DNA of 64,000 nucleotides from Candidatus Parcubacteria bacterium (GCA_003599335.1 QZJN01000007.1:812-64811), one strand, 5' to 3'; shown: positions 3,703 to 33,043, counted from the stretch's first letter. The notes: generated from the sequence alone by a model not told the origin. Translations and numbers: made by a program.

Positions 3703-3736
3703 AAAAAGTAGTCTTCTTGTGCTAAAATAATCGTAT

Positions 3737-15361: not shown

Positions 15362-15377
15362 GTTAACAATTGTTAAC
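15362..15377. promoter_or_regulatory. perfect 16-bp palindrome GTTAACAATTGTTAAC (copy 1)
   Basis: Exact palindrome read from the sequence. It lies between the stop of the HTH gene and the start of thpR. Confidence 0.5.
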
Positions 15378-15661: not shown

Positions 15662-15677
15662 GTTAACAATTGTTAAC
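15662..15677. promoter_or_regulatory. perfect 16-bp palindrome GTTAACAATTGTTAAC (copy 2)
   Basis: Exact palindrome 47 nt upstream of the HTH gene start, also in front of the divergent def/fmt-containing transcription unit. Confidence 0.5.
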
Positions 15678-19528: not shown

Positions 19529-20623
19529 ATGAAACTTGCACTTTATCGCAAATATCGCCCTCAAACCTTTGAAGAAGTCGTTGGCCAGGAACCAATAGTA
19601 CAAACCCTTACCAATGCTTTAAGACTTGGACGTATTTCCCACGCCTATCTTTTCACAGGCCCTCGGGGTTCTGGAAAAACAACCCTTGCGCGTTTGTTTG
19701 CAAAAGCAGCCAATTGTTTTAGCCCAAAAGACGGCCTGCCGGATAATAAGTGCTTAAATTGCCAGCAATATAACGCCGGTTCTCATATGGATTTGATTGA
19801 AATAGACGCAGCTTCAAATAGAGGCATCGATGAAATGCGCGAGCTTCGCGAAGGCACGAAGTTTTCGCCCACCCAGTCAAAATACAAAGTCTTCATAATA
19901 GATGAAGTGCACATGCTTACCAAAGAAGCCTTCAACGCGCTCCTTAAAACTTTGGAAGAGCCGCCCAGCCACATAATCTTTATTCTTGCGACAACAGAAA
20001 TTCAAAAAGTTCCTCCCACGATTATATCTCGCTGCCAGCGCTTTGATTTTAAAAAACTAACTATTGATATTATTATCAAGCGCTTAACTAAACTGGCCAA
20101 GCTTGAAAATATCAAAATTGAACCAGATGCTCTGCGCTTAATCGCGGCCTCTGCCGAAGGGGGCCTGCGCGATGCCGAATCTTTGCTTGATCAGGCCGGA
20201 ATATTGAAAGATAAAACAATAACCAAAGAAGATGTTGAGATGCTTCTTGGACGGCTGGATATAAACCTTGTTTTGGAATTTATTGAATTGCTTTCAAAAA
20301 AAGACACAAAAGGAGCAATTCAATATTTAAACAATCTTATTAGTGAAGGCCACGATATAACCTTGTTTTCAAAAATGCTCGTTGAGTACGCCCGCAAAAT
20401 GCTCGTTGTAAAAATAAACCCTGAAATGCTTGAAAGCATTGCTCCAGAATGCGCCAAAGAACAACAAGAAAAATTAAAGGCGCTTATTGGCACTTTTGAG
20501 TTAAAAGAACTCCAAAACTTTGCAGAAATTTTTGTCGGAGCCAATACTCGGGCGCCCCGCATTCCCCTACCAATATTGGCGCTGGAACTTGCGGTTGTTG
20601 AATTTTTAAGCCCGAAAAGCTAA
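19529..20623 (+). CDS. dnaX: DNA polymerase III subunit gamma/tau (short, 364 aa)
   Basis: HAYLFTGPRGSGKTT Walker A, DEVHML box and SRC motif. The tau C-terminal extension is absent. Confidence 0.85.
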   Translation: MKLALYRKYRPQTFEEVVGQEPIVQTLTNALRLGRISHAYLFTGPRGSGKTTLARLFAKAANCFSPKDGLPDNKCLNCQQYNAGSHMDLIEIDAASNRGIDEMRELREGTKFSPTQSKYKVFIIDEVHMLTKEAFNALLKTLEEPPSHIIFILATTEIQKVPPTIISRCQRFDFKKLTIDIIIKRLTKLAKLENIKIEPDALRLIAASAEGGLRDAESLLDQAGILKDKTITKEDVEMLLGRLDINLVLEFIELLSKKDTKGAIQYLNNLISEGHDITLFSKMLVEYARKMLVVKINPEMLESIAPECAKEQQEKLKALIGTFELKELQNFAEIFVGANTRAPRIPLPILALELAVVEFLSPKS

Positions 20624-20637
20624 AATAAATTACTCTT

Positions 20638-20708
20638 TGCGGGATCGTCTAATGGTAGGACACCAGCCTTTGGAGCTGGGTATCTTGGTTCGAATCCAAG
20701 TCCCGCAG
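20638..20708 (+). tRNA. tRNA-Gln (anticodon UUG)
   Basis: Cloverleaf folds by hand. Acceptor stem TGCGGGA/TCCCGCA with U1-A72. Anticodon arm CCAGC-CTTTGGA-GCTGG. TPsiC arm CTTGG-TTCGAATC-CCAAG. Discriminator G. CCA is not encoded. Confidence 0.8.
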
Positions 20709-20712
20709 CAAT

Positions 20713-21495
20713 ATGCAACTTCTTAGTATCTTAGAACCACCTTCAAAAGAAGCACTCCAAGCTTTTGCCAAGAAAAGAAATATTGATGAGTATTTGGTAA
20801 AAGATTATCACCATCCGCAGGAAGATTTTTTAGTTGTTTCGGAAACCCCTCCTGTCTTTGTTGTTTCTGATGGTGTTACTTTAAACTTCAACAAACTGAT
20901 AGAAACCAAAACAAAATACCCAAACCCCTCCCCCGCCGGGGACGTTTCAAAAATATTTTGCCAAGCCGTTGTCCAAAAAGCCAAAGAAAAGCATGAAACG
21001 CTTGGTGAAGCTGACATTGCGGAAATATTTAAATACGCCAATAACGAAGTTGGAAAATACAACGAAAAAGTCGGCAAAAGCGATATTGCCGGAAACCCGA
21101 CTGGTTATTATGCCGCTACCGGCTCGTTCGTAATTATCAAAAACAATAAGGCTTACTGGGCTTCAATATGCGACTCTTACGTCGCTTTTTTTGATAATAA
21201 AATGAACTCTAAATTTATGTCTTCCGGCTCGTGCAGGCCTTACGCTGTTATCAACGGCGAGGAAAGAATGGTAAATCACGTAGAAAAAGGTGTCTTTAAT
21301 TTAGAAAACGGAGATTATATATTTGTCTTTACCGATGGATTTGCAGATTATGTTAAAAACAAAGATTTTTCAGAATTATTTAAAAATTGGGATAAAAACC
21401 TCAAAGAAAGCATCGCTGAATTTTCAAAAGAGATGAACCTGGCAGACCCCGAAAAATACGGCCACGAACGTTCGCTAATAGCCGTTTTGGTATAA
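20713..21495 (+). CDS. PP2C/SpoIIE-like serine/threonine phosphatase (putative)
   Basis: VVSDGVT and IFVFTDGFADYV motifs, then ERSLIAVLV at the C-terminus. Weak resemblance to PP2C. Confidence 0.4.
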   Translation: MQLLSILEPPSKEALQAFAKKRNIDEYLVKDYHHPQEDFLVVSETPPVFVVSDGVTLNFNKLIETKTKYPNPSPAGDVSKIFCQAVVQKAKEKHETLGEADIAEIFKYANNEVGKYNEKVGKSDIAGNPTGYYAATGSFVIIKNNKAYWASICDSYVAFFDNKMNSKFMSSGSCRPYAVINGEERMVNHVEKGVFNLENGDYIFVFTDGFADYVKNKDFSELFKNWDKNLKESIAEFSKEMNLADPEKYGHERSLIAVLV

Positions 21496-21502
21496 TAAAG
21501 AT

Positions 21503-22393
21503 ATGAACTGGGTTTTACTTTCTTTGCTCGCTCCCCTATTTTGGGCTGTTTCCAATTTTGTCGATAAATACATTCTTGGGAAATACACAAAGAGTATTTA
21601 TGATTTCCTTTTCTTTTCAACAATAACTAGTTGGGCATTATTTCTTATACTCTTCCTCTTTATAGGAATGCCCGAACTAACAATATACTCATGGATACCC
21701 ATCGCAACAGGCGTTATTCTTATTTATTCTTACGGTTTTTATGGAAAAGCGCTTGAACAAGGAGACACCTCATCATTAGTTATCCTTTTTAAACTCATCC
21801 CCGTATTTACAGTAATTTTGGCATTTATATTTTTGGGCCAAGCCTTATCAACTAATGAACTCATCGGGTTCTTTATTGTTTTAATCGGCGCAACCATGGT
21901 GTCGCTAGAAAGAACGAAAAGCTTTTTTATTAAAGGTTTTGGGATGATACTGATAGCAATCGTAATGTGGTCGGTGATGACGCTATTCATAGATTTTGGG
22001 CTGACCAAAATGTCTTTTTGGGATTATTTTTTGCTTGATAATTTGGGTTCGGCTCTCGCCGGGTTAACACTTTTTATTGTGCCGACCATGAGAAAAGAAG
22101 TAATAGATGGAATAAAAACGGCAACGGGCGGTAAATACTTTTGGTATTCGTGGAATAATATGTTGGACTTTTTTGGCCAAATGAGTATTAAAAAAGCTCT
22201 CGCAATTGCTTCATCTGCCGGGCTCGTTACGGTCGTTATGCAAGTACAATCTTTCTATGCAATCGTTATAGGGATATTGCTAACATTGTTTGTGCCGCAT
22301 ATCATCAAAGAAGATATTGCAGTAAAAACTTTGACCAAAAAAGTCATTGGGGCCGCAATAATGTTTTCCGGTGTTTATATATTATTTCGGTAG
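21503..22393 (+). CDS. EamA/DMT-superfamily transporter
   Basis: About ten TM segments in two repeated halves. Confidence 0.5.
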   Translation: MNWVLLSLLAPLFWAVSNFVDKYILGKYTKSIYDFLFFSTITSWALFLILFLFIGMPELTIYSWIPIATGVILIYSYGFYGKALEQGDTSSLVILFKLIPVFTVILAFIFLGQALSTNELIGFFIVLIGATMVSLERTKSFFIKGFGMILIAIVMWSVMTLFIDFGLTKMSFWDYFLLDNLGSALAGLTLFIVPTMRKEVIDGIKTATGGKYFWYSWNNMLDFFGQMSIKKALAIASSAGLVTVVMQVQSFYAIVIGILLTLFVPHIIKEDIAVKTLTKKVIGAAIMFSGVYILFR

Positions 22394-22465
22394 TATGATT
22401 AAACTTTAGAAAATTGTAAGGTAAATCCAAACAATATTAATCAAAAGCCAAAAAGACTATCTCTT

Positions 22466-24055
22466 ATGGAGCTATCTCCTACAGATCTTCTCTCAAAAGG
22501 ATACTTTCCGGAGGAATTGCCACCACCATTTCAAACCGTGGTATTGGGACAAAAGTTTTCAAAATTAGAGAAACAGCTTTCAAAAGTTACCAAAAAATTT
22601 AGGCAAGCTCATGCAAAGTCGAGTTGCATAAAATACACCGCTCCAAAAAGAGGTTTTTCGAGACGCAACTTTAATATTCCAAATCCTTTCCACTTTATAG
22701 AGCTAGTTAGATTACTAAACGACAATAAAACATCGATTTTAAAAATTTTAAAATCATCAGAGTATTCTATTTTTCTAAAAGAAAGGCTTAGGAATGACTG
22801 GAACGAATTTGCAAAGGATAGATTTGTAAAATCACAAGACTACATTTATGAGTTGAAAACTGATATAGCTCGTTACTTTCCAACCATTTATACTCATAGT
22901 ATTTCTTGGGCTATTCACGGTAAAAAAATTGCGAAGTCTAACAAAAGTAACCCGAGCCTCTGGGGCAATGAACTAGATAAAAAGGTAAGAAACCTGCAGG
23001 ATAATCAAACCATAGGAATCCCCGTTGGCCCTCATGTTTCTAGAATAATTGCAGAGTTAATAGGTTGCGAGGTAGATAAAAAGTTGAAAGAGTGGATACT
23101 TAAAGAAAATCTCGATGTTCTTGTTTTTAGATATATTGATGACTACTTTTTATACTTTTCAGAAGAAAGTACAGGAGAAAAAATCTTAAACTCGCTTCAA
23201 TCAATTTTAGACGATTTTAACCTAGAAATTAATCACAATAAAACTGAGGTAACAAAATTTCCCTTTGGTCTAGAGCCTAAATGGGTCAGCGACTTAAGAT
23301 CATTTACCATACGCAAAAAGAACCCCGAACAAATATTCGATATCATGGATTTTTTTAGCATAGCTCTTAACTACACTAACGAACACAAAAATGAATCTAT
23401 CCTAAAATATTCTCTAATAAAACTTCGTAATACAAAAATAATTGATCGAAACTGGGATTACTTCGAAGCTTGGCTACTAAAAATTCTTTTGTATAATACC
23501 AATGTTCTGCCAGAAATACTTAGTTTATTCTTATTAAACCAAGGTAAACTAAACGCAGATAGAATAAAGCAAGCAATTGAAAAACTAATTGTAACAAGCA
23601 TCAAAAAGAAAAATAACTACGAAATCGCTTGGAGTCTCTGGATTGCTAAATCTCTAAAGATTAAATTATCTAGTCAATTAGTTAGTGGGGTGTTTCAATT
23701 AGAAGATCCGATTTCAATTTTAATTGCATTAGATTTAATCAATTCTAATCTAATTATCGGAACCACTAAAAAATATCTCAATTCTTTAGGAAATTCTTTA
23801 AGTCAAAATTCTCTTTTTAACGAATACTGGCTACTAGCTTACGAAAGTAGCATTAAAGGATGGCTAAAAATACCAAAATTAAATTTGCAGAACGACGAAT
23901 TTTATAAAACTCTATACAAAGAAAAAGTGAGTTTCTATGACAGCAAAAAACAAATTTACTATGCTCCTTACAGCAGACGAAAAAAAAGAACTGCTAAGGA
24001 AAAGAATAATTTTATTGGTTTTACCCGCATATTTAAACGTCCATCTTTTTATTGA
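22466..24055 (+). CDS. stand-alone reverse transcriptase, AbiK/Abi-P2-like (abortive-infection class)
   Basis: RT motifs: APKRGFSRRNFNIPNP (motifs 1/2), DIARYFPTIYTHSISWAIHGK (A), GIPVGPHVSRIIAELI (B') and VFRYIDDYFLYF (C, YIDD). NLEINHNKTEV follows as motif D. A C-terminal helical extension of about 250 aa follows. No maturase or endonuclease domain. Confidence 0.75.
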   Translation: MELSPTDLLSKGYFPEELPPPFQTVVLGQKFSKLEKQLSKVTKKFRQAHAKSSCIKYTAPKRGFSRRNFNIPNPFHFIELVRLLNDNKTSILKILKSSEYSIFLKERLRNDWNEFAKDRFVKSQDYIYELKTDIARYFPTIYTHSISWAIHGKKIAKSNKSNPSLWGNELDKKVRNLQDNQTIGIPVGPHVSRIIAELIGCEVDKKLKEWILKENLDVLVFRYIDDYFLYFSEESTGEKILNSLQSILDDFNLEINHNKTEVTKFPFGLEPKWVSDLRSFTIRKKNPEQIFDIMDFFSIALNYTNEHKNESILKYSLIKLRNTKIIDRNWDYFEAWLLKILLYNTNVLPEILSLFLLNQGKLNADRIKQAIEKLIVTSIKKKNNYEIAWSLWIAKSLKIKLSSQLVSGVFQLEDPISILIALDLINSNLIIGTTKKYLNSLGNSLSQNSLFNEYWLLAYESSIKGWLKIPKLNLQNDEFYKTLYKEKVSFYDSKKQIYYAPYSRRKKRTAKEKNNFIGFTRIFKRPSFY

Positions 24056-24099
24056 CATAGCTCAATACTCTTCCTCTCCTAAAATCGTTCATTAACCCA

Positions 24100-24465
24100 A
24101 TGATCTCCACACGCATACTTATTTTTCACACGACACTCCTTATTGGTTTTATAACTGCCTCTGTGGCTTCGTCTGTTATAACAATGGTTTTTCCAGAACT
24201 TTTGCCCGGGAAATATCTTTTGTTTGGCGTGATCCTGCTAACCGGGCTTATCCTTGGTTCCTGGTCATTATTTCGCGGATGCCCTTTCACTGTGTGGGAA
24301 AATAAATATCGCGAACGCGAACGCCCCGGCTCGGCGTATCGCGGCCCCTGCATTGATAGATATATAAAAGAATGGTTCAACGTCCGCCTGCCCGCGCGAT
24401 TGAGCACATTTATACTTCTTGGCTTTCTCATCTTCCCCGCCATAACCGGCCTACTCAATTGGTAA
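24100..24465 (+). CDS. small membrane protein, DUF2784-like
   Basis: Three TM helices with a GCPFTVWEN...R motif. GC is intermediate between the host and the island. Confidence 0.4.
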   Translation: MISTRILIFHTTLLIGFITASVASSVITMVFPELLPGKYLLFGVILLTGLILGSWSLFRGCPFTVWENKYRERERPGSAYRGPCIDRYIKEWFNVRLPARLSTFILLGFLIFPAITGLLNW

Positions 24466-24528
24466 AACACATTCTCCCTCCAAAACAAAAAGCTAAAGCC
24501 CACCAACAACCTCTCAACAACATCGTAT

Positions 24529-24544
24529 GTTAACAATTGTTAAC
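24529..24544. promoter_or_regulatory. perfect 16-bp palindrome GTTAACAATTGTTAAC (copy 3)
   Basis: Exact third copy, at the left edge of the high-GC island. Confidence 0.5.
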
Positions 24545-24641
24545 GTAAGTTTTTTATTCAGGTTTTACTTTTTGTCTCTCCTCCCTCAAAACTCCCCTTT
24601 CATCTCGCCGCAATTTCAACAAAGACTGACAAAAACAAAAA

Positions 24642-24672
24642 GAGCCAATCCCTTTCGGAACTGGCTCTTTGT
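24642..24672 (-). terminator. rho-independent terminator hairpin
   Basis: AGAGCCA...TGGCTCT stem, with T-runs on the minus strand and a weaker T-run on the plus strand. Lies directly 3' of the minus-strand island gene. Confidence 0.5.
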
Positions 24673-24693
24673 TTGAAAGACCGATGTTGGAAA

Positions 24694-25779
24694 CTAGTTG
24701 GCGCCGGCCGCGGCTGCAGCCTGGTCCATTGTTTCTTCCGGAGTTTCCGAAAGATCCAAGGGCGGTGCAGTTTCGTTCGGCCGGAGACGCCGCGTGCGCT
24801 TGCCGGAGTTGACGTGATTCAGCAGCATTTGGTAAAGGATCTCACGCGCCTTGCCACTGGCCGAAGCCAGATTGACAATGTACGGATCGGTTACCGGGAA
24901 GAGCTTGATCTTGCGGATCAAATCCCTCTCCACAAAAAACCGCTTATCACGCCAGAAATCCTGGTGCCTCGAGAACAACGTTGCTAGGCAGATCAGGAAG
25001 GTGTTGCGCAGGTACGCGGCGCCTTCGCGAATCGTCACAATGCGGATACCCCAGCACTGATCGAGTATGTCAGAGAAGGTTCGTGCGTTCTCGCGCAGAA
25101 CATTCGGGCCTGTAACCTCCATGATTTTCTGGAGGCCACGAGCCAACTCGTCAGTTTTGCTCCCGCGGCCAGGGCCAAGGTGAGAGTGCAGCGCGCCAAC
25201 CGCCTTACAGAAAGTCAAGGCAGTGATCAACTCGCCGTGCTTCATCCGCTGGCTCCAGGAAATCTTGCCGTGCATGACGAACCCGCGATCGCGAGTCGTC
25301 AAGCTGAACAAGTGAGAGACAACAGGGAACTCGTGCTGGAGATTGCGGAGCAGAATGTTGGGAGAAAGCTTTGTCCGCTCGGTGTTGAGGATGCGGAAAC
25401 GGTCCCGTTCCCACTCCTCGGTTGTATTGAAATGAACCGTGCAGCCCAGGCGTGGCGACTTGCCAGTACCCAGCTGCATCAGACGCATCGCCGCGGTCAC
25501 CCGCTGCAGACCGTCGATGATGAAAACATCGTTCTTGAGGTAGAAAGCCCCGTCGCGCTCCATAAAATCCCCTCCCCGCATCCCAAGTTCAATGTCGGGA
25601 ACGGTGCTCTTTTGGAACGCTTCGATGAGCGTGTTGATTTTGGCCAACGGCAGAACCTCGCGCTGATAGGGAGCAGTCTGCAATTGGTGCAACGAACCCG
25701 GGTCAACCTCACCTCGGAGAATAATGTCTTTCTTCTCCTCGCTGAGAGCAGCCCGTACTACCTTAACTGAATCGCGCAT
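24694..25779 (-). CDS. ParB/Srx-fold protein with DGQHR/DUF262-like motif (IIDGLQRVTA)
   Basis: 361 aa, GC-rich codon usage. IIDGLQRV resembles the DndB DGQHR and DUF262 DGQQR(LTT) ParB-like motifs. The SD (AAGGAGG) sits 11 nt upstream. Confidence 0.4.
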   Translation of the reverse strand: MRDSVKVVRAALSEEKKDIILRGEVDPGSLHQLQTAPYQREVLPLAKINTLIEAFQKSTVPDIELGMRGGDFMERDGAFYLKNDVFIIDGLQRVTAAMRLMQLGTGKSPRLGCTVHFNTTEEWERDRFRILNTERTKLSPNILLRNLQHEFPVVSHLFSLTTRDRGFVMHGKISWSQRMKHGELITALTFCKAVGALHSHLGPGRGSKTDELARGLQKIMEVTGPNVLRENARTFSDILDQCWGIRIVTIREGAAYLRNTFLICLATLFSRHQDFWRDKRFFVERDLIRKIKLFPVTDPYIVNLASASGKAREILYQMLLNHVNSGKRTRRLRPNETAPPLDLSETPEETMDQAAAAAGAN

Positions 25780-25877
25780 AAAGCGACGATCCTCCTTGTG
25801 AAGATTGGCTTTGACTCCCTTATGCCATATTGGCTGGGATGGTAAGCCAATTTTTTTATATCAAACAAAAACTAAAG

Positions 25878-25911
25878 TGTCAAGCAATTTTCTGTCTCCC
25901 GTGGCTTGACA
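25878..25911 (+). promoter_or_regulatory. inverted repeat TGTCAAGC-N18-GCTTGACA overlapping a TTGACA -35 hexamer
   Basis: Exact 8-bp inverted repeat in the divergent promoter region between the DGQHR-like gene and the three-ORF unit. Confidence 0.35.
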
Positions 25912-25959
25912 GAATTATATTTTTATACAATAATCTTTCCAGACTTTAAGGAGGTACAC

Positions 25960-26295
25960 ATGGAGGAAAAGCTCTTTTTGCTCAAGAAGAAACACAAACA
26001 CGAACTGGCGGCCGTTCCCGGAGGAGACCACCCAACCTTTGATTCCGACGAGTTCGTTGTCGGCACATCTCCCGAAGAAGTGATCGATCGGATTTTCAAT
26101 GAGGAGAAAGCCAAACGCGACGAGTGGGAACGCAAGATGGAAACCGCGGAAACCCAGGATGTTGTAGATGACCCCATCGGAACTTTTCCGCCGGTTCTCC
26201 CCGTGCGCAAAGAAGAATGGAAGGCCGAGGAAGTGAAAGTTGATGGCTACACCATCATCCTGGAAAAACAACCCGAACCCTCTCCTGCGACCTGA
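25960..26295 (+). CDS. hypothetical acidic protein (111 aa)
   Basis: Strong SD (AAGGAGG) 7 nt before the ATG. GC-rich codons. No recognisable motif. Confidence 0.45.
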   Translation: MEEKLFLLKKKHKHELAAVPGGDHPTFDSDEFVVGTSPEEVIDRIFNEEKAKRDEWERKMETAETQDVVDDPIGTFPPVLPVRKEEWKAEEVKVDGYTIILEKQPEPSPAT

Positions 26296-26326
26296 TTTAA
26301 ATCGCTCTCTGAATCTGGAGGAAACC

Positions 26327-26545
26327 ATGGAAAATCGCCAGGTTGTTTTTGTGGAAGCGATTATCAAAGACGAAGAACTCAAAGCTGGCCAAAACCCGCG
26401 CATTCGGCCAAACGAACTTCTGGAACGTGGCCTTGAAGCTCGCCGCGCCGAGGGATGGTGCGATGTTTTTGCCCTTCCCTTGCCCACGCCCGATGGTGGC
26501 CAAAAATGGGCCATCGTTTTCCACCGCCATAACCATCTTCACTAG
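26327..26545 (+). CDS. hypothetical small protein (72 aa)
   Basis: GGAGG SD upstream. Same transcription unit as the preceding ORF. Confidence 0.4.
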   Translation: MENRQVVFVEAIIKDEELKAGQNPRIRPNELLERGLEARRAEGWCDVFALPLPTPDGGQKWAIVFHRHNHLH

Positions 26546-26642
26546 CCTTCGCAGAAAAGCTCAAAGCTTAGTACGCGAGGGCTTTTCTGTTTATTGACAG
26601 GATAACACTTATATGTTAATTAAGTTTTATACAGGAGGTGTC

Positions 26643-26936
26643 ATGTTTCAGTTCTTCAAAGACTGGCGACGCAGGTGGCGGGAGAAAAAGCGGCGACGGC
26701 TTTTGGACGAACTTGCGTGGGTGGAAAGTCAAATCTCCAGCATCACGCAGGAAAACGCCCAAACCAAAAAGCTCCATACGCGCCTGGCCGAGGAAAGCGC
26801 CGTGGTTTTTGACCAGGAGAGAGACTCTCGTTTTGCGGCTCGTTCAAGCGAGCGCGCCCAGAATGCAATCCTCCTTGGCCGGTACCAACGCGAAAAAAAG
26901 CTCATTGAGCGAGAGCTCGCTTCCCTCCCCGCCTAA
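26643..26936 (+). CDS. hypothetical basic/coiled-coil protein (97 aa)
   Basis: AGGAGGTG SD. Arg/Lys-rich N-terminus followed by a heptad-like helical region. Confidence 0.45.
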   Translation: MFQFFKDWRRRWREKKRRRLLDELAWVESQISSITQENAQTKKLHTRLAEESAVVFDQERDSRFAARSSERAQNAILLGRYQREKKLIERELASLPA

Positions 26937-26951
26937 AGCACAGCAGCAAAA

Positions 26952-26993
26952 GGCCCGGACCGATCTAACCAATCGCGCCGGGCCTTTTCTTTT
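26952..26993 (+). terminator. terminator-like hairpin GGCCCGG...CCGGGCC followed by TTTTCTTTTCTT (repeat copy A)
   Basis: 7-bp GC stem with a long loop and a T-run. Closely related to the copy at 28004-28046. Confidence 0.45.
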
Positions 26994-26994
26994 C

Positions 26995-27023
26995 TTGACA
27001 TAAGTAAATTATCATTTTATTAT
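26995..27023 (+). promoter_or_regulatory. sigma70-type promoter (TTGACA, 17-nt spacer, TATTAT)
   Basis: Near-consensus hexamers 42 nt upstream of the PyrD-like gene start. Confidence 0.45.
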
Positions 27024-27064
27024 CGCAACATCCTGAAAGACGGGAAAACTACAAGGAGGAGACG

Positions 27065-27988
27065 ATGGAGATCCCATCGGCAAAGTTCGGAGCTCTTGAA
27101 TACACGCCAGCTCTTTCCAACGGCGCAGGAATGATCAAAAAGCTTGAGGATGTGCGGGAAATGGCCCTCTCGGCCGCCGGCGCCATCGTCGTCGGCTCCA
27201 TCACCCTCAAGGACAGGCCTGGCAACACAGGCAACACGTTTTGGGTCGGCCAAACCGGCTCAATCAACTCGCTTGGCATCCCCAACCCCGGCAAGGAATA
27301 CTACCGGCAAAACATCCATTTGATGGTTGGTGTCGCCCATGCTCATGGCAAGAAACTCATCGTCAACGTGGCCGGCTTCCAACCAAACGAATTTGGCGAA
27401 CTGGCCCTCTTGGCCTTTGATTGCGGGGCCGACGCGGTTGAGCTCAACTTCGGCTGCCCCAACATCTGGGACGATGGCACCCAAAAAGGCATTATCAGCT
27501 TTTACCCGGATGTTCTGGGCGAATCGCTGGAAGCCGTGAGACGAGCCGTTGGCGTTGGCTCCAACATCATCGCTAAGGTTTCCCCTTTTTCCAACCCAAT
27601 ACAACTCAAGGAAATCGGCGGCGTGATCGTGAGCTCAGGAATCGTTTCGGCCATTACGGCCATCAACACCTTCCCCAACGCTTACGGCGAGTACGAAAAC
27701 GGCCGGCCGGTCATTGATCCGGGCGGAGGACTTGGCGGCTTTGCCGGCGCCGGGCTCAAACACATTGCCCTTGGTCAAGTGAAGCAGTGGCGCGCCCTGC
27801 TGCCTCCCGAAATTGCCATCATTGGGGTTGGCGGTATTTCCAGGGGCAAGGACATGGCCGAGTATTTCCGTCATGGCAAGGTTGCGGCCGTTCAGGTCGT
27901 TACGGCGCTTTTGCGCAAGGGCCACATGGACCCCAACGCCTTGAGCACCATTCTCATGGAATACGCCGAGCTGCCGGATGCAGCGTGA
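27065..27988 (+). CDS. dihydroorotate dehydrogenase-family (PyrD-like) FMN TIM-barrel oxidoreductase
   Basis: NSLGIPNPG, ELNFGCPN and C-terminal IIGVGGISRGKDMAEYFRHGKVAAVQVVTALL match class-1 DHOD signatures. SD AAGGAGGAGAC. Confidence 0.65.
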   Translation: MEIPSAKFGALEYTPALSNGAGMIKKLEDVREMALSAAGAIVVGSITLKDRPGNTGNTFWVGQTGSINSLGIPNPGKEYYRQNIHLMVGVAHAHGKKLIVNVAGFQPNEFGELALLAFDCGADAVELNFGCPNIWDDGTQKGIISFYPDVLGESLEAVRRAVGVGSNIIAKVSPFSNPIQLKEIGGVIVSSGIVSAITAINTFPNAYGEYENGRPVIDPGGGLGGFAGAGLKHIALGQVKQWRALLPPEIAIIGVGGISRGKDMAEYFRHGKVAAVQVVTALLRKGHMDPNALSTILMEYAELPDAA

Positions 27989-28003
27989 AGTTCCACAACT
28001 AGA

Positions 28004-28046
28004 AGGCCCGGAGCCAAAATTAACTTTTGGCGCCGGGCCTTTTCTT
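28004..28046 (+). terminator. terminator-like hairpin GGCCCGG...CCGGGCC followed by TTTTCTTTTT (repeat copy B)
   Basis: Same stem, and a partly conserved loop, as the copy at 26952-26993. It marks the right edge of the GC island. Confidence 0.45.
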
Positions 28047-28071
28047 TTTATTTAATTTTCGTACAATAACA

Positions 28072-28422
28072 ATGATGACCCCTCAAACGTGGCAAAAATG
28101 GTACACTCGCGTTATTGGAGTATTTTTTATACTTGTTTCAATTTCTCTTATCGCCGATTTTGCGCAATTTGGCTTCCGGCCAGAAACAATGCATAAAATC
28201 TTTCACGTTTTGCTTGGAATAATTATTGTAAAATTTGGCTGGAACAACGAGGCTTGGTGGAAGCCCTTTGCTTTGACCAACGGATCGTTTTTTACATTTG
28301 TAGCTTTGTCTGGACTAATCTTCCCAGATTTTGGTGGCTTGGATGCATTCAATAATCTTGATACAATCTTGCATAGTATAGTTGGCGTTTCAGGATTAAT
28401 AATTGGATCAATAAAAGGATGA
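28072..28422 (+). CDS. small hypothetical membrane protein
   Basis: Three or four TM helices. Low-GC (host-like) codon usage resumes here. Confidence 0.4.
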   Translation: MMTPQTWQKWYTRVIGVFFILVSISLIADFAQFGFRPETMHKIFHVLLGIIIVKFGWNNEAWWKPFALTNGSFFTFVALSGLIFPDFGGLDAFNNLDTILHSIVGVSGLIIGSIKG

Positions 28423-28841
28423 TTAAATCGCTTGGAAAACTTTTTATAATTATTGGCCTTGTTACTTTTGGATTTGTCGCTTTATTTTTCTGGCTTATAG
28501 GGCAAAGCGAAAATCTTGCCAATTTAAGTATCGGCACGGCATTATTTAGCACTGTGCTTATAGTTGTTTTTGCCGTTTCCGTTGCATTCTTCATCCTTGG
28601 TATGATTTTGTATTTTGTGGGCAAAAGGATAACTAGAAACCAGAGACCAGAAACCAGAAACCAAGGACGAATGCTTGCCTGCCGGGACGTTGGGATGGAT
28701 TGCGACCATATTGTTTATGGTAAAAACGATGCTGAAGTTTTGGAAAACGCCAAAAAACACGCGATTACCCACGGCTTCACGGAAAAAGATTTAACCGAAC
28801 AATTCCTTAATCGCCTTAAATCGGCAATCAAAGATAAATAA
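28419..28841 (+). CDS. membrane protein with C-terminal DUF1059-like Cys/His domain
   Basis: Two TM helices, then MLACRDVGMDCDHIVYGKNDAEVLENAKKHAITHGF. Contains a GAAACCA heptanucleotide repeat. Confidence 0.4.
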   Translation: MIKSLGKLFIIIGLVTFGFVALFFWLIGQSENLANLSIGTALFSTVLIVVFAVSVAFFILGMILYFVGKRITRNQRPETRNQGRMLACRDVGMDCDHIVYGKNDAEVLENAKKHAITHGFTEKDLTEQFLNRLKSAIKDK

Positions 28842-28868
28842 AAAACGCCAACATTGTAAAAAACCACA

Positions 28869-29459
28869 ATGGCTAAAATAAACAATAAGTTAATATATAT
28901 TAACTTACGTGATTTTTTCAAATCAGAAAAAAATCAAAACGAAATAATCACCTCTATAAAAAATGGCGGTATTATAATTTACCCAACAGATACTATTTAT
29001 GGCATTGGCTGCGATGCAACAAACAAAAAAGCTGTTTTACGCTTAAATAAGGCAAAACAAAGAAAGCCTGGCCAACCTTTCTCCCTAATTGCACCGTCAA
29101 TAAACTGGATTTACAAACATACAACCATAAAGAAGTACGCCATAAAATATTTAAAGAGATTGCCTGGTCGCTATACATTCATTCTCAAAGCCAAACCAAG
29201 TATTAAACATTTAGTAACCAAAGGCGCTGTCGGAGTTCGTATTCCAAAACATAAATTTACGGATATTATCCGCAAACACAAAATTTTATTGATCACAACC
29301 TCGGTGAATTTATCCGGCCAGCCTCCGGCTAGAAGCGTGAGAGAAATGCCGGCTCGCCTTAAAAAAGCAGCTTCTCATATAATTAACGCCGGACAGTTTG
29401 GAGGAAAACCATCAACAATAATTGATCTAACCGGCCAAAAGCCAAAAAAGATTAGATAA
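28869..29459 (+). CDS. tsaC: L-threonylcarbamoyladenylate synthase (YrdC/Sua5 family)
   Basis: IIIYPTDTIYGIGCDATNKKAVLRLNKAKQRKPGQPFSLI is the YrdC signature. Confidence 0.85.
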   Translation: MAKINNKLIYINLRDFFKSEKNQNEIITSIKNGGIIIYPTDTIYGIGCDATNKKAVLRLNKAKQRKPGQPFSLIAPSINWIYKHTTIKKYAIKYLKRLPGRYTFILKAKPSIKHLVTKGAVGVRIPKHKFTDIIRKHKILLITTSVNLSGQPPARSVREMPARLKKAASHIINAGQFGGKPSTIIDLTGQKPKKIR

Positions 29460-29467
29460 ATCAAAAA

Positions 29468-29495
29468 GCCCTCGATGAGGGCTTTTTGAGTTTTG
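29468..29495. terminator. bidirectional rho-independent terminator
   Basis: GCCCTC-GATG-AGGGC hairpin flanked by A-runs and T-runs, between the convergent tsaC and GtrA-like genes. Confidence 0.6.
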
Positions 29496-29502
29496 TAAAA
29501 AT

Positions 29503-30144
29503 TTATCTTTTAAAGACTATAAACTTGTATCCCAAGAAATTCCACACAAGAGCTGCAAACGTTGCTATAATTGCCCCAACATTTGCCCAAACTTCAACCC
29601 TTAACCCCCCTTGTGGTCCCAAAACATTAACGACAAATCCGGCAACCGCAACATTAATTAAAAGCCCAATAATGCTTACCACCAAAAACTGAAAAAATTC
29701 TTTACCATGATGTTCATGTTCTGGAACATTTGAGCCGGCCATCGCATGCGTATCTCCGGCTTTAAACGTCCAAAACTTATTCCAAAAATAGCTATTTATA
29801 ACAGCGGCAGTGAATGCAATGGCTTTAAAACCCAAGAAAACTTTACCCGCAGCAATTGCAGAAGCAAATATCAATAAATTCAAAAGCCCTAAATCAATAA
29901 AAGTATTTAAAGCTCCAACAAGAGCAAATTTTGCCAACTGAGTCAAAACGGCCCATTTTGCCGAAAGCCATTCCGCAATATACATTCCAAAAGCCGAGAG
30001 CGCCGGAAAAACAATCGGAATCGCAATATTAAAATATGGAATTGGGATCTGAAGATTAGCATTGGTTGCAATAACCAACCAAGCAACAACCTCACCAATG
30101 ACGGCCGCGGCTATTAAATCATTTTTATGGACATTTATATTCAT
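29503..30144 (-). CDS. GtrA-family membrane protein with N-terminal extension
   Basis: FALVGALNTFIDLGLLNLL...NSYFWNKFWTFK...WNFLGYKFIVFK are GtrA-like repeats. Confidence 0.55.
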   Translation of the reverse strand: MNINVHKNDLIAAAVIGEVVAWLVIATNANLQIPIPYFNIAIPIVFPALSAFGMYIAEWLSAKWAVLTQLAKFALVGALNTFIDLGLLNLLIFASAIAAGKVFLGFKAIAFTAAVINSYFWNKFWTFKAGDTHAMAGSNVPEHEHHGKEFFQFLVVSIIGLLINVAVAGFVVNVLGPQGGLRVEVWANVGAIIATFAALVWNFLGYKFIVFKR

Positions 30145-30153
30145 ATCTATCTT

Positions 30154-30624
30154 TCACTTATTAGATTTTATTTCGTTAACCTTTTTTCTAACTTCATGGG
30201 GATCTGAAATATGACTAAATGCAATCTCCTGGATTGAAGTCCCGGCGCTATTAAACAATACCGCACCCGAACCAAATAGAAGTTTTTCAATAAATCCCTC
30301 CTTAACCATTATATCAGTAAGTTTATCAAATTCTATCTCAACAAGATGGGTATTAAGGAACTGAAAATAAGAGATAACGCGTCTGTCTGTAACAATATAC
30401 ACATAGGCTGCCTGTAAATACAGGCTATATAAAAATAAGACCAATGCCACGAACAAACCAATCGACATGCCAATAGCATCACCGCTTAAACCCAAAAGGA
30501 AAATGCCAACCCCAAGCACAGCCCAAAAAAAGGCGTAAGCTTTATTAATACCCCAAACCCCAATAAGCTTCTCCCCGGCCGAAAGATTTTTTTGCGCCAA
30601 TGTTTGACGCCTTGTTTCAAACAT
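30154..30624 (-). CDS. membrane protein with bacterial PH (bPH_2/YdbT-like) domain
   Basis: Two TM helices, then YVYIVTDRRVISYFQF...LVEIEFDKLTDIMVKEG. Start taken at the internal Met next to the stop of the upstream gene. Confidence 0.45.
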   Translation of the reverse strand: MFETRRQTLAQKNLSAGEKLIGVWGINKAYAFFWAVLGVGIFLLGLSGDAIGMSIGLFVALVLFLYSLYLQAAYVYIVTDRRVISYFQFLNTHLVEIEFDKLTDIMVKEGFIEKLLFGSGAVLFNSAGTSIQEIAFSHISDPHEVRKKVNEIKSNK

Positions 30625-30628
30625 AAGT

Positions 30629-33043
30629 TTAAGACTGGGATTGTGTCTGCTGGACCGTTGAGGTTGCGGCCTGCAATTTATCCCAGATCTCACGCTCAAC
30701 AACATCTTTTGGACGACCGTATTTATTTAAAGCATACGCCCTAACCCTATCAATCCATTGAAGATCCGGTTTTGGCAAAGGAAGAGTTTTCATATTAAAC
30801 GGCTTTGAAGTCTGGCCGCCGATTATCATTTTTATATAAGCGTTGTAGTTATCAATATTTATAAGATCGTTTGAGGAAAAAACAGGCTCCATTTGTTTAG
30901 AAAGAAAATCTCCATCTTCCGGCCCAACACGAAAGGCGACGATCGTGCCAACGTTGCCAAAAACGGCATCGCGAATGTTTTGCGGAAGTTGAGCTATGAA
31001 TTGATGCGCAACAGTGAGGCTTAAACGATATTTTCTTGCTTCGGATAAGATTGAGGCAAAAGAATCGGTTGTAAAATTCTGAAACTCATCGACATAAAGG
31101 TAAAAATCCCTTCTCAAGGATTCAGGAATGTCTCCCCTGCCAAGGGCAGCCATCTGCAGCTTTGAAACCAAAATCAAACCAAGCAAGTGGCTGTTTACCT
31201 CGCCGATTTTCCCCTTGGAAAGATTTGCCAATAAAATTTTCCCCTTGTCCATAATATCTCTGAAATTAAATGCCGAATAAGGTTGGCCGATGATATTTCT
31301 CATGGCCGTGTTTTCAATAAACCGACCTAATTTTGAAATAAGATATCCCAACATTTCGGAACGATGAAAATCCGAAGTTTGAGCCATTTCTTTTTCCCAG
31401 AATGATCTAACCAAAGGATCGGTAACTTTCTGAAGTTTTACTTTTACAAATTCTTTGTCGGTAAAAATCCTTGGAATTTCAACTATAGTTCCGGGGCTTT
31501 CTTTTTCGGCGGCCAAAGTAAGCATGGCGTTTCGCATATTATGCTCAAACAAAGGCCCTGTCATTTCCGGTGGAAACAATTTAAGAAAAATTGCTATCAT
31601 TTCCTGAACCGCCAGATCTTTTTGATCTTCGGTCTGCCATTCAAGCATGTTTAGACCCATAGGCCGTTCGGTAAAACTTGGATCGAAATAAACGACATCA
31701 TCAAGCCTCTCTTTGGGTATATAGCTCAAAACCGTATTAACAAGCTCTCCATGAGGATCAATAACCGCCACGCCATGACCAGCTTCGATGTCTTGCTTTA
31801 TTAAAGAGCCTATAAAATTTGATTTACCGGTGCCGGTCTGACCGACTATATAAAGATGCCTTCTTCTGTCATCGGGAGACATTTTTACGAGCCTTGTTGC
31901 GCCACGATAAACATTTTCTCCAAGCACCAACCCTTCCTGGGGAAGATTAACCGGTGGCTCTGCCGGTTTAGATTTTAACCAGGCAATTTTCGGAACGCTC
32001 ATGCCGGGCGGAGGAAAATGGAACAAAGCGGCAAGCTCGGAAGCACTCAGAAACAAAGACTCCGCTTTATTGAAAAGCCTAAAAGAATAATTAAAAGTGA
32101 ATTTTTTTAAAGAAGAGCCGGAAATCCTCCTTACTTTAAACGAATTAAGCCCACTTTCTTGAAATTGGGCAAAATAATCTTCCAAATTGGCAACTATCGT
32201 TTGCGCCTGAACTTGAGTCGGGGCCGAAACTATAAGCCTAATATTAGCTTCAAAATTAACCTGACTGCCCTTTTTATTTATAAGCTGGGCGCTTTCATCG
32301 GCAACAGAGGCTACAAACCTCGGAGCTTTATCTTTTTCACTTAAAGATTTTCCGCGCAGAGCATCTTCTAAGCTTAATCCCTCTGCCAACTTCCTAACGA
32401 TCGATCTTGCTTTCTCGTTTAAGGAAGTTGCCCCTTTTCTCAAGACTATCTGATAACTTGCTCCCTCTCCCTCTTTTGCAAGCTTTGTAAAAATATTCGT
32501 CAGGCTCGGCAAAGGATCGGAGCTGAAGCGAGAAACATCCTTAACCGGCAATACTGAATCCCGCGATAAAACAATATATGAACCGGCTGTTGAACCTTGG
32601 GGATGAAAAATATTATAATCATCAATCGGCTCGACATAGGCTTCCGGATAAAGAGCCTGAATTTGTTTCGTTATGGCCTCTTCTAATTCTTCGGGTGTTG
32701 AAACATAAAATCTTATTTCCTCTCCTATGTGATGAACAGAAATTTCAAAAGCCAAAGCCGGCCATCTTAACTTTTTACTACGTTCCAAAATTCCTGCCAA
32801 AGAAGCGAAAAATTGTTCTGCCACGCCGGAATATTCCTTGAATTCAGAGGGGTGAACATTTGAACTTTGGGGTAAAGTTACCAATAGTAATTTTGTGTGC
32901 AATGCCCTAAGCGTCTGATTTTTTGACTCCCAACGAAGCCAAAAAAGCCAAAGAATCAAAATTAAAATTAAAAAAACAAAAAATGCGGCCGCCCCGCCTA
33001 TAAGACCGGCTTGAGAAATTTTTGCCAATAAAATCGTTTCCAT
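30629..33043 (-). CDS. TraD/VirD4-like type IV secretion coupling ATPase (AAA-like, DUF87-type)
   Basis: 804 aa. N-terminal TM helix, Walker A LYIVGQTGTGKSNF and Walker B LYVDEFQNF. Domain organisation resembles T4SS DNA-transfer coupling proteins. Confidence 0.5.
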   Translation of the reverse strand: METILLAKISQAGLIGGAAAFFVFLILILILWLFWLRWESKNQTLRALHTKLLLVTLPQSSNVHPSEFKEYSGVAEQFFASLAGILERSKKLRWPALAFEISVHHIGEEIRFYVSTPEELEEAITKQIQALYPEAYVEPIDDYNIFHPQGSTAGSYIVLSRDSVLPVKDVSRFSSDPLPSLTNIFTKLAKEGEGASYQIVLRKGATSLNEKARSIVRKLAEGLSLEDALRGKSLSEKDKAPRFVASVADESAQLINKKGSQVNFEANIRLIVSAPTQVQAQTIVANLEDYFAQFQESGLNSFKVRRISGSSLKKFTFNYSFRLFNKAESLFLSASELAALFHFPPPGMSVPKIAWLKSKPAEPPVNLPQEGLVLGENVYRGATRLVKMSPDDRRRHLYIVGQTGTGKSNFIGSLIKQDIEAGHGVAVIDPHGELVNTVLSYIPKERLDDVVYFDPSFTERPMGLNMLEWQTEDQKDLAVQEMIAIFLKLFPPEMTGPLFEHNMRNAMLTLAAEKESPGTIVEIPRIFTDKEFVKVKLQKVTDPLVRSFWEKEMAQTSDFHRSEMLGYLISKLGRFIENTAMRNIIGQPYSAFNFRDIMDKGKILLANLSKGKIGEVNSHLLGLILVSKLQMAALGRGDIPESLRRDFYLYVDEFQNFTTDSFASILSEARKYRLSLTVAHQFIAQLPQNIRDAVFGNVGTIVAFRVGPEDGDFLSKQMEPVFSSNDLINIDNYNAYIKMIIGGQTSKPFNMKTLPLPKPDLQWIDRVRAYALNKYGRPKDVVEREIWDKLQAATSTVQQTQSQS

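Follow-up and report, generated by a model that had tools for sequence, protein, structure and literature searches.

Genes and features of the locus

The window, i. e. the whole stretch of 64,000 nt that was analysed, contains a block of about 3.4 kb (24,640-28,048/28,050), the five genes of which form four self-contained transcription units. The block and its left-hand neighbours comprise the following features:

22466..24055, plus strand: defence-type reverse transcriptase (RT; Drt4/Drt6-like), GC 32%, below host
24100..24465, plus strand: DUF2784-like membrane protein gene, GC 47%, no SD; PF10861 1.6e-4, under the cut-off
24529..24544, no strand: third copy of the palindrome GTTAACAATTGTTAAC, in AT-rich host-like DNA
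24639..24670, minus strand: intrinsic terminator for the 361-aa gene (14-bp stem, then a T-run), lying farthest left of all features in the foreign block
24694..25779, minus strand: gene of a 361-aa protein, GC 56.5%, GC3 0.70
25855..25883, minus strand: promoter of the 361-aa gene, TTGACA-N17-TATAAA, read from the sequence
25906..25934, plus strand: promoter of the unit of 111-aa and 72-aa ORFs, TTGACA-N17-AATAAT, 11/12 consensus positions
25960..26295, plus strand: 111-aa ORF, AAGGAGG SD, GC1/2/3 0.64/0.34/0.59
26327..26545, plus strand: 72-aa orphan ORF, TGGAGG SD
26552..26599, plus strand: junction module, hairpin followed by GGGCTTTTCTGTTTA and TTGACA, read from the sequence
26643..26936, plus strand: 97-aa ORF, basic, coiled-coil-like, CAGGAGG SD
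26948..26993, plus strand: terminator hairpin copy 1, GGCCCGG...CCGGGCC (hairpin 26948-26988) followed by TTTTCTTTT
26995..27023, plus strand: promoter of the DHOD-like gene, TTGACA-N17-TATTAT, 11/12 consensus positions
27065..27988, plus strand: gene of a 307-aa divergent class-1 dihydroorotate-dehydrogenase-like (DHOD-like) flavoenzyme, GC1/2/3 0.60/0.44/0.69
28003..28048, plus strand: terminator hairpin copy 2 (hairpin 28003-28041); right end of the foreign block

Composition and edges of the block

The GC content of the block is 53.7%, that of the remainder of the window 38.4%. Windows of 3.4 kb outside the block have a mean of 38.7% (sd 1.4, maximum 41.4%), which places the block about 10 sd above them. 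Its coding parts have 56.1% GC and its spacers 40.1%; windows of 200 nt top out at 60-63%. The composition-normalised tetranucleotide signature deviates (z=8.3), and GC3 amounts to 0.52-0.70 in the five block genes versus 0.28-0.38 in the flanking host genes. A preliminary description of this DNA had proposed a high-GC island in a low-GC chromosome with a switch to G or C in third codon positions, and had suggested tetranucleotide and codon-usage profiling. Both profiles deviate, and the island stands as described. The GC content of about 60% given for it holds for the 200-nt peaks only, but neither for the whole block nor for its coding sequence.

The edges had been placed at 24550 and 28020. 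On the left, the GC jump lies about 145 bp further to the right, at approximately 24695-24700, and coincides with the stop codon of the minus-strand 361-aa gene. On the right, GC drops at approximately 28040-28050, with host-like DNA from about 28049. The right edge does coincide with a terminator-like repeat, as proposed: the hairpin at 28003..28048, homologous to the one at 26948..26993, closes the block. Maximum-likelihood segmentation of the window assigned the GC-rich segment to 24226-28040. It starts this far to the left because the DUF2784-like gene, too, is GC-enriched in its 3' part.

The left edge had been equated with the third copy of the palindrome GTTAACAATTGTTAAC. This copy is real; the palindrome occurs in three exact copies (15362, 15662 and 24529), with 0.07 expected by chance. 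However, the third copy lies about 100 bp to the left of the block's terminator, hence outside the GC-rich DNA, and is probably not part of the block. A 67-aa HTH ORF (15412-15615) lies between the other two copies, and the palindrome looks like a host operator.

The two large block genes have near-identical GC at the three codon positions (GC1/2/3), 58.6/41.4/69.6 in the 361-aa gene and 60.4/43.5/69.2 in the DHOD-like gene. For a genome of 60% GC, the Muto-Osawa/Lawrence-Ochman regressions give an expectation of 63.8/42.9/69.2. The values of both genes fit a donor of about 58-60% GC.

Around the block, composition forms a gene-by-gene mosaic, from 32% GC in the RT over 47% in the DUF2784-like gene to 56% in the coding sequences of the block. 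The RT is also compositionally foreign (tetranucleotide z=4.5). It matches Drt6 (2e-158) and Drt4 (7e-154) of PADLOC and scores 249 bits with Drt4 of NCBIfam, the cut-off of which is 450 bits. The DUF2784-like gene is possibly an older import.

Translation and transcription signals

The preliminary description had credited all island genes with canonical SDs, and the island with promoters and GC-stem terminators of its own. All these signals were found again. Each of the five block genes has an SD site (AAGGAGG, TGGAGG or CAGGAGG) 6-9 nt upstream of its ATG. Among the host ORFs at most 5 of 59 have an AGGAGG-type SD, in a generous count that allowed any start within the first 40 codons (p ~3e-5, hypergeometric, calculated by hand). 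SD use in the block is unlike that of the host, and therefore the spacers are foreign, too.

The promoter of the 361-aa gene, which reads from 25883 to 25855, is divergent from the promoter at 25906. Downstream of it lies a leader of about 75 nt, which includes GGCATAAGGG. Besides the promoter of the DHOD-like gene at 26995, there is a candidate at 26594 with TTGACA but a weak -10 box. Terminators with GC stems are located at 24639-24670, 26948-26988 and 28003-28041. The latter two belong to homologous copies, and the changes in their stems are compensatory; the 19-mer GCGCCGGGCCTTTTCTTTT has only two sites in the whole window, 26975 and 28030. In the junction module at 26552..26599 a terminator tail merges with the next -35 box. 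It resembles the module at 26981-27000: hairpin, GGSCTTTTCT and TTGACA follow each other at 26579 and at 26981, and again at 28035 without TTGACA. The GC content of the block spacers (40%) is below that of typical intergenic DNA in a genome of 58% GC, a point against such a donor that is explained only by their being almost wholly promoters and terminators.

The 361-aa protein and its family

The 361-aa protein has a ParB/sulfiredoxin-fold domain with a DGQHR-type loop and a helical C-terminal domain, for which no structural match was found. It exceeds none of the curated cut-offs of TIGR03187, PF14072 and NF041060; its TIGR03187 score is 17.6 bits with a cut-off of 58.85 bits, and 18 of 25 family members match this model weakly (best 3e-9). 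In PHROG it matches a ParB-like family (E=2e-5). Judged by its fold only, this phage-type protein is probably a DNA-binding NTPase.

Known members of the ParB/sulfiredoxin superfamily are DndB/DpdB and the DUF262/GmrSD N-terminal domain; the 361-aa protein has DGLQR instead of DGQHR. In contrast to DndB/DpdB it scores far under the curated cut-offs, and no dndCDE or dpdA-type partners are found beside its gene, the neighbours being the DUF2784-like gene and the 111-aa ORF. In contrast to GmrSD it has no DUF1524/His-Me nuclease domain. A type IV restriction enzyme of the GmrSD/BrxU kind was also considered and rejected (PF03235 at only E=0.027, no DUF1524, no PADLOC match). Genes were called in two of the CPR loci, L001 and L002, and there the DGQHR gene has housekeeping genes as neighbours.

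In 22 other, independently assembled CPR loci (23 with this one) the family appears as a gene-exact GC spike of more than 10 GC points over the flanks. The meta-profile shows an excess of about zero up to -50 nt, of +13 to +17 points within the gene, and of about zero again by +50 nt past the stop. In 38 IMG/VR contigs the GC content of the gene equals that of the contig (43-65%), one example being a gene of 43% GC inside a viral contig of 43% GC (L075). It also equals that of the surroundings in a conserved prophage-like module of Acidobacteria, which holds a ParB-like protein, an exonuclease and an ATPase (identified by eye). These viral contigs and the Acidobacteria module are taken as a high-GC reservoir of the family.

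A neighbour-joining tree shows viral and CPR copies intermingled; in it, a viral contig of 193 kb and 62% GC (L072) is sister to the clade of the window's copy. Between the window and L001 the DGQHR proteins are 67% identical and the DnaX proteins only 48%. Judged by similarity, which is incongruent with host phylogeny, the 361-aa gene appears younger than its hosts. Outgroup-polarised substitutions from GC to AT are two to four times commoner than those from AT to GC in the CPR copies, with counts of 45:15 (L030 and L031), 60:15 (L012), 58:16 (L019) and 67:34 (window). This indicates amelioration or decay of the CPR copies, not maintenance of GC at equilibrium.

Elsewhere the DGQHR units are single-gene inserts. 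A perfect pair of 28-nt direct repeats tightly flanks the gene in L040, a 48-nt pair flanks the gene's region in L039, and a conserved structured 5' leader accompanies the gene. Together with the gene-exact spikes and the interleaved viral and CPR copies, these repeats and the travelling leader suggest a tentative and rather speculative interpretation. Leader, DGQHR/ParB-fold gene and terminator might together be a small mobile cassette without an integrase of its own, which many CPR lineages repeatedly captured from phages of high GC. These phages possibly infect the bacteria that CPR cells live on. If so, composition and phylogeny of the captured genes could be used to trace CPR-host-phage triads; recurrent capture of a phage-type ParB-like gene by CPR bacteria would be an interesting side result.

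The DHOD-like protein and the small ORFs

The DHOD-like protein matches PF01180 (6e-32) over profile positions 7-278 of 291 with 111 bits, well above the gathering cut-off of 27 bits. The equivalog level is not reached: the best NCBIfam score is 128.7 bits with a cut-off of 301 bits, and the protein stays below half of every NCBIfam equivalog cut-off. Its best PDB match is L. lactis DHODA (4e-23), and its nearest relatives are 59-62% identical. It carries an NFGCPN motif, the Cys of which is the class-1 catalytic base. The PHROG match is to a DHOD-like family of unknown function; no relatives were found among viral contigs. In two independent loci (L068-L070 and L071) relatives of 59% identity adjoin pyrE, and in L071 also pyrF. 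Homology and these neighbours suggest that the protein is PyrD-like and would turn dihydroorotate into orotate. With class 1A PyrD (L. lactis DHODA, PDB 1dor) it shares full-length PF01180 and the NFGCPN motif; pyrE/pyrF neighbours are seen with its relatives only. It differs from it in its scores below equivalog level and in that its gene stands alone, with neither pyrE nor pyrF in the scanned parts of the window. Both large block genes have relatives in Acidobacteria/Terriglobia.

The 111-aa ORF has no family match, and a search of 1.84 billion representatives gave no more than 12 weak homologues for it (best 40% identity). With the 72-aa ORF, a search of 5.8 billion proteins recovered only the ORF itself. 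The 97-aa ORF has neither a family match nor viral relatives.

Origin of the block

The interpretation we favour, and consider reasonably probable, is that the block is real horizontally acquired DNA, probably one contiguous piece, from an SD-using donor genome of about 58-60% GC. About 3.4 kb (24,640-28,048) would have entered a variable region of the Parcubacteria chromosome, probably in one piece. A phage or some other mobile element would be a plausible donor, and so would a high-GC bacterium. The cargo would comprise the phage-type DGQHR/ParB-fold protein, the PyrD-like flavoenzyme and three tiny ORFs. It would be carried on four autonomous units. Each of these has its own promoter of the TTGACA type, AGGAGG ribosome-binding site and terminator hairpin. 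Such signals would allow expression in a host whose genes mostly have no SD. Since its arrival the block would have been drifting toward the AT-rich composition of the host. HGT and genomic islands are common in Patescibacteria (PMC12455944).

As the preliminary description had noted, no integrase or transposase lies inside the block (Pfam, NCBIfam, PHROG and PADLOC). Since no recombinase is encoded, the DNA was probably taken up and then integrated by an illegitimate event or by recombination. The nearest integrase is a XerC/D-type gene at 10586-11560, and neither a tRNA-Gln-derived att repeat for the block nor direct repeats flanking the whole block were found. GtrA lies immediately upstream of dnaX in five related lineages, with VirD4 further upstream, and in two more lineages VirD4 itself abuts dnaX. 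Here 8.9 kb lie between dnaX and GtrA, which points to a variable region; the lineages compared are only 46-55% identical in DnaX, and the search gave no close relative.

The recurring junction module and the near-identical codon-position GC of the two large genes point to a single block from a single donor. The suggested search for the origin of the island genes was productive for two of them, which have relatives in high-GC phage-like or bacterial sequences. Yet the nearest homologues of the block genes are only 62-67% identical, which counts against a named donor, and the lack of DHOD-like relatives in viral contigs is awkward for a purely phage donor. The acquisition had been called very recent, which is too strong; a fairly recent one fits better. 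The codon-position GC is still donor-like, but the polarised substitutions already reveal a net decay from GC to AT.

Less likely, but worth considering, is a real but piecemeal acquisition, in which the four units came from different donors to an insertion-prone spot. For example, the DHOD cassette would have landed at the terminator that follows the 97-aa gene and thereby duplicated this terminator. This would suit the homologous 46-48-nt terminator hairpins, which bracket the DHOD cassette and occur nowhere else in the window, and the L071 homologue, which is likewise bracketed by repeated stop-codon-plus-hairpin modules. The single-gene DGQHR inserts with their repeats in L040 (28-nt) and L039 (48-nt) point in the same direction, as do the viral relatives of the DGQHR gene and the cellular ones of the DHOD gene. 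Moreover, no other locus was found with any two of the five genes together, which also weakens the case for a single block. However, the terminator-tail-plus-TTGACA module common to three junctions, the one SD style in all five genes and the same codon-position GC in the two large genes are accounted for more simply if there was a single donor genome.

The preliminary description had also allowed for an assembly chimera. Here, 3.4 kb of a co-occurring high-GC organism or phage would have been stitched into the Parcubacteria contig. The block is indeed foreign in every property (GC, tetranucleotides, SD use, promoter style), the contig of 66,177 bp occurs in one assembly only, and neither a mobility gene nor a flanking repeat accounts for the insertion. 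Yet an internal insert requires two chimeric joins, and both junctions are intergenic although ORFs cover all but about 5% of the host sequence. Each gene of the block and of its flanks is intact, none is truncated, and the window contains no Ns. The foreign composition of the neighbours is graded gene by gene (32%, 47%), and the family shows this same spike in a further 22 CPR assemblies, from different groups and in different contexts. We thus regard a chimera as improbable; the differences in GC, codon-position GC, tetranucleotides and SD use speak for the other half of that proposal, HGT.

Long-term residence with a high GC content maintained by codon or mRNA selection, or by GC-biased gene conversion confined to the gene, is very improbable: the excess is limited to coding sequence in 23 loci and GC3 lies at 70-92% among copies whose proteins differ by 35-55%, but substitutions run from GC to AT, the family needs no high GC (43% in L075, host GC in high-GC hosts), and codon selection would not explain the foreign SD sites.

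Comparison with known systems

Phage 'morons' as described by Juhala and Hendrix are reportedly autonomous promoter-gene-terminator units of deviant composition. The block units resemble them in their sigma-70-type promoters, intrinsic terminators and deviant composition, and one gene belongs to a phage-borne family. Unlike morons, they reside in a cellular chromosome and not in a prophage, with no phage structural or lysis genes nearby. A prophage or phage remnant was rejected as well: structural, lysis and integration genes are missing, and the only PHROG matches are the ParB-like and the DHOD-like family.

Integron or pdif-type cassettes are similar in being small and promoter-proximal, each with a trailing hairpin, and homologous hairpins bracket the DHOD cassette. 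In contrast to these, there is no IntI, the block cassettes bring their own promoters, and of the four hairpins no more than two resemble each other. An integron cassette array was rejected: an integrase is missing from the block and its immediate surroundings, and the hairpins are terminators of GC stem plus T-run rather than attC or dif sites.

The block is most probably an ordinary horizontally acquired island without an integrase. With the islands of Patescibacteria/CPR (PMC12455944) it shares the deviant multi-gene composition, the streamlined chromosome, the position beside a defence gene and a cargo of metabolic and unknown genes. It differs from them in its small size (3.4 kb), in the lack of an integrase, a tRNA att site and flanking repeats, in a GC content above that of the host, foreign DNA being more often of lower GC, and in translation-initiation signals that differ from those of the host.

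Composition and layout of the island

The GC content of the block at 24,640-28,050 is 53.7%, compared with 38.4% in the remainder of the window. This places the island about 10 standard deviations out; the highest other 3.4-kb window reaches 41.4% (sd 1.4). Its coding parts have 56.1% GC and its internal spacers 40.1%, because the spacers consist almost wholly of promoters, Shine-Dalgarno (SD) sites and T-runs. The figure of about 60% GC given in the preliminary description thus holds only for local peaks, which reach 60-63%, and not for the block as a whole. GC rises where the minus-strand 361-aa gene has its stop codon (about 24,695) and drops at about 28,040-28,050. The described shift to G/C third positions is borne out by a GC3 of 0.52-0.70 in the five island genes versus 0.28-0.38 in the flanking host genes, and the tetranucleotide profile suggested there as a check gave an extreme composition-normalised distance (z=8.3).

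The island is built of four self-contained transcription units:

Unit 1, minus strand: TTGACA-N17-TATAAA promoter, leader of ~75 nt, AAGGAGG SD, 361-aa gene (24694..25779), terminator at 24,639-24,670
Unit 2, divergent from unit 1: promoter at 25,906, 111-aa and 72-aa ORFs, hairpin
Unit 3: weak promoter, 97-aa ORF, hairpin at 26,948-26,993
Unit 4: promoter at 26,995, gene resembling dihydroorotate dehydrogenase (DHOD; 27065..27988, plus strand), hairpin at 28,003-28,048

The hairpins of units 3 and 4 are homologous and show compensatory stem changes; there is no further copy in the window. A module of terminator tail plus TTGACA occurs at 26,579 and 26,981, and again without TTGACA at 28,035. 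The promoters, the SD sites on all five genes, the terminators and the terminator-like repeat at the right edge were all found as first described, and there is no integrase inside the island.

A 5-mer SD is present in five of five island genes versus 5 of the 59 host ORFs, for which any start within the first 40 codons was allowed (p ~3e-5, hypergeometric, calculated by hand). The DNA ahead of host genes is rich in A/T, typically ...ataaataaaATG. Thus the non-coding spacers of the island are foreign too. The SD scarcity of the host is a feature that the preliminary description undervalued. Strong SDs imported into a largely SD-lacking host are a natural test of whether SD-led initiation still works there. 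Host exceptions bearing an SD include 11679-12014 (aaaggagg), 44093-44626 and 56359-56988.

Identity of the island genes

The 361-aa protein had no match in Pfam, PADLOC or PDB sequences at normal thresholds. Its family comprises about 330 proteins and has the invariant motifs PD..LG.RG, DG.QR and F..LN. TIGR03187 (DGQHR domain) is weakly matched by 18 of 25 family members and GmrSD_N by 13 of 25, and structure matches among viral proteins include DndB-like 'sulfur modification' and GmrSD_N proteins. For these reasons we call it a DGQHR-type ParB-fold protein; judged from the fold, it may be a DNA-binding NTPase.

The 307-aa protein matches PF01180 over its full length (111 bits), every NCBIfam equivalog stays below half its cut-off, and the closest PDB match is L. 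lactis DHODA. It is predicted to be a full-length yet divergent class-1 DHOD. Relatives with 59% identity adjoin pyrE in the comparison loci L068-L070 and L071, the latter with pyrF as well. In L071, the DHOD homologue and the gene upstream each end in the same 'TGA plus hairpin' module (2160-2770, 3750-3830) and are each preceded by the same GGCCCCTTTTGTTTTTT module; like the island, that genome has repeated terminator/promoter junction modules.

The 72-aa ORF was an orphan in the protein search, for the 111-aa ORF there are 12 weak relatives, and the 97-aa ORF had neither a family match nor a viral relative. A search for exact matches to the island proteins came back empty, and hence the junctions were not found in a second assembly. 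An IMG/VR search yielded no relatives of DHOD or of the 111-aa and 97-aa ORFs. In cultured phages (tblastn) the DGQHR gene was without match, and DHOD matched at only ~28% identity in unannotated records that are maybe host fragments. The other four island genes were not found near any of 67 genomic and 38 viral DGQHR loci, and an Rfam scan of 23,900-28,300 gave no match.

Recurrent capture of the DGQHR gene

At 41 of the 67 genomic loci, which are mostly from CPR bacteria, the DGQHR gene exceeds its flanks by more than 5 GC points. In the 23 loci with an excess of more than 10 points, the excess sets in no more than ~50 nt from the start codon and is gone by ~50 nt past the stop (e. g. 64 vs 41% in L064, 61.5 vs 39% in L009 and 59 vs 38.5% in L026). 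The neighbours are not conserved among CPR loci, except in one subgroup of eight; in the two loci with called genes (L001, L002) the gene sits amid differing housekeeping genes. CPR bacteria have repeatedly acquired this phage-type ParB-like gene on its own, as a unit of high GC.

Taken by itself, the island is a routine gene import into an ultra-small bacterium. It is less ordinary that CPR bacteria have captured a phage DGQHR gene time and again, and that an SD-rich island sits within an SD-poor host. The repeated capture is a hint of a function under selection and of a flow of DNA from high-GC phages or hosts to CPR cells, and it could aid in inferring the hosts of CPR bacteria.

Further gene-sized GC spikes were seen in CPR-like contigs (L068, 5400-6000; L002, 1500-2500 and 12000-12413), among such spikes a Pfam-negative 198-aa ORF with 56-61% GC in surroundings of ~33-42%. 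Hence single-gene high-GC imports may be common in CPR-like genomes.

Six sequences (L016:9862-10004, L022:1975-2110, L034:222-351, L035:3190-3319, L039:9862-10004, L048:8030-8163) share a conserved structured 5' leader ~100 nt ahead of the DGQHR homologue, CCUCGAACA-UAAGG-[variable hairpin]-CUGUUUCGGG, with compensatory changes in 6 of 12 predicted pairs. The leader of the 361-aa gene in the window has only GGCAUAAGGG and has no Rfam match.

At L040, the DGQHR unit (3302-4633) sits tightly between the two copies of a direct repeat that is perfect over 28 nt, TTTTTCATCCTATTTAATCAGGAAAATA; with mismatches the repeat continues to 69 nt and takes in a copy of the downstream host promoter. At L039, a 48-nt repeat lies ~250-350 nt out on either side of the gene. 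Both look like target or att duplications.

Source of the high GC content

In 38 viral contigs from IMG/VR (43-65% GC, mostly 50-65%) the DGQHR gene has the GC content of its contig. The family does not require high GC; one copy has 43% GC in a contig of 43% GC. In a neighbour-joining tree, which is crude and has long terminal branches, viral and CPR copies interleave, and the sister to the clade of the window is a 193-kb viral contig of 62% GC. A tight clade from Acidobacteria carries the gene at host GC (~61%) inside a conserved module (L046, L049-L056, L058-L060, L062; also viral L089-L094 and L109). By eye, its genes read as sigma-like, ParB-like, DGQHR, PD-(D/E)XK exonuclease, AAA ATPase, SSB-like and ERCC4-like nuclease, and the module looks like a prophage replication region.

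When differences in CPR copies were polarised with an outgroup, changes from GC to AT were two to four times commoner than the reverse (L030 and L031, 45:15; L012, 60:15; L019, 58:16; the window, 67:34), which indicates that the copies are drifting towards the composition of the host. Import with subsequent amelioration is thereby supported; maintenance of the high GC by selection or biased gene conversion is contradicted by the direction of substitution. GC1, GC2 and GC3 of the two large genes of the window still fit the Muto-Osawa/Lawrence-Ochman expectation for a genome of ~58-60% GC. The import is therefore recent on the timescale of amelioration; the 'very recent' acquisition proposed at first goes too far, as the substitutions in the window (67:34) show that some time has passed since.

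DHOD relatives in low-GC genomes lie ~10 points above their flanks (L190, L068), those sharing 50% identity have the same GC content as their host in a flagellated bacterium of 64% GC, and one relative is labelled Terriglobia. A phage route from high-GC hosts is plausible.

Mode of acquisition

We lean towards the arrival of the island as one donor fragment in a single block, because its units share junction modules, a uniform SD style and matching GC at the codon positions. A piecemeal gain, cassette by cassette, is rather doubtful; it would fit the bracketing of the DHOD cassette by hairpins, the comparable hairpin arrangement in L071 and the occurrence of direct repeats on both sides of the DGQHR gene in L040 (perfect over 28 nt, imperfect over 69 nt) and L039 (48 nt).

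That the island was stitched into a Parcubacteria contig during assembly, the other possibility raised in the preliminary description, is unlikely: the window contains no Ns, no gene is truncated, two joins would be required, both intergenic although ORFs cover all but ~5% of the host sequence, the left neighbours deviate in opposing directions so that composition forms a gene-by-gene mosaic and not a two-state switch, spike-bearing assemblies come from many groups, and, most tellingly, the 361-aa family shows the same GC behaviour at other loci.

Features defining a prophage, an integron or a GmrSD system were not found in the island, and it is not a recognised defence system. Its architecture resembles that of phage morons. 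The surroundings are ordinary chromosome (mraY, ftsW, murG, gltX, a XerC/D-type recombinase, rplI, def, fmt, dnaX, tRNA-Gln, tsaC, alr, serS). Genomic islands are frequent in Patescibacteria (PMC12455944), and the block is a small island of this kind without integrase.

Insertion region

In five related lineages GtrA lies directly upstream of dnaX with VirD4 beyond, and in two more VirD4 abuts dnaX. The arrangements compare as follows:

Relatives (L113-L116, L124, L126, L140): VirD4, GtrA, dnaX (then C39 peptidase), adjacent
Window, 19529-33043: dnaX inverted; segment from dnaX to tsaC inverted and expanded to ~10 kb
Window, 8.9 kb between dnaX and GtrA: tRNA-Gln, PP2C, EamA, reverse transcriptase (RT), DUF2784-like, island, DUF4383, DUF1059, tsaC

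A DnaX-based search for close relatives found none above 55% identity; with relatives this distant, the comparison shows no more than that the region is variable. Searches for a tRNA-Gln-derived att repeat, and for direct or inverted repeats around the island or the 361-aa unit, found none.

The RT (22466-24055, plus strand) is of a defence type (PADLOC Drt6 2e-158, Drt4 7e-154). Its GC content of 32% is lower than that of the host, and its tetranucleotide z is 4.5. The RT is a second foreign segment, which deviates in the opposite direction from the island. The DUF2784-like gene between the two has 47% GC.

A CU-rich anti-SD-like sequence, UCUCUCCUCCCUC (24560-24640, plus strand), lies between a 16-bp palindrome and the bidirectional terminator. 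A small RNA at 24,560-24,682, containing CUCCUCC, was considered and rejected, as its predicted fold is no stronger than that of shuffled sequence (z=-1.5).

The palindrome, GTTAACAATTGTTAAC, is indeed present at 24529 as a third copy. The other two (15362-15377 and 15662-15677) bracket a 67-aa excisionase/MerR-like HTH ORF (15412-15615, minus strand) in the divergent promoter region of ligT and the def-fmt operon. This makes an operator likelier than a dif or att site, and these two copies are probably the operator of the 67-aa regulator.
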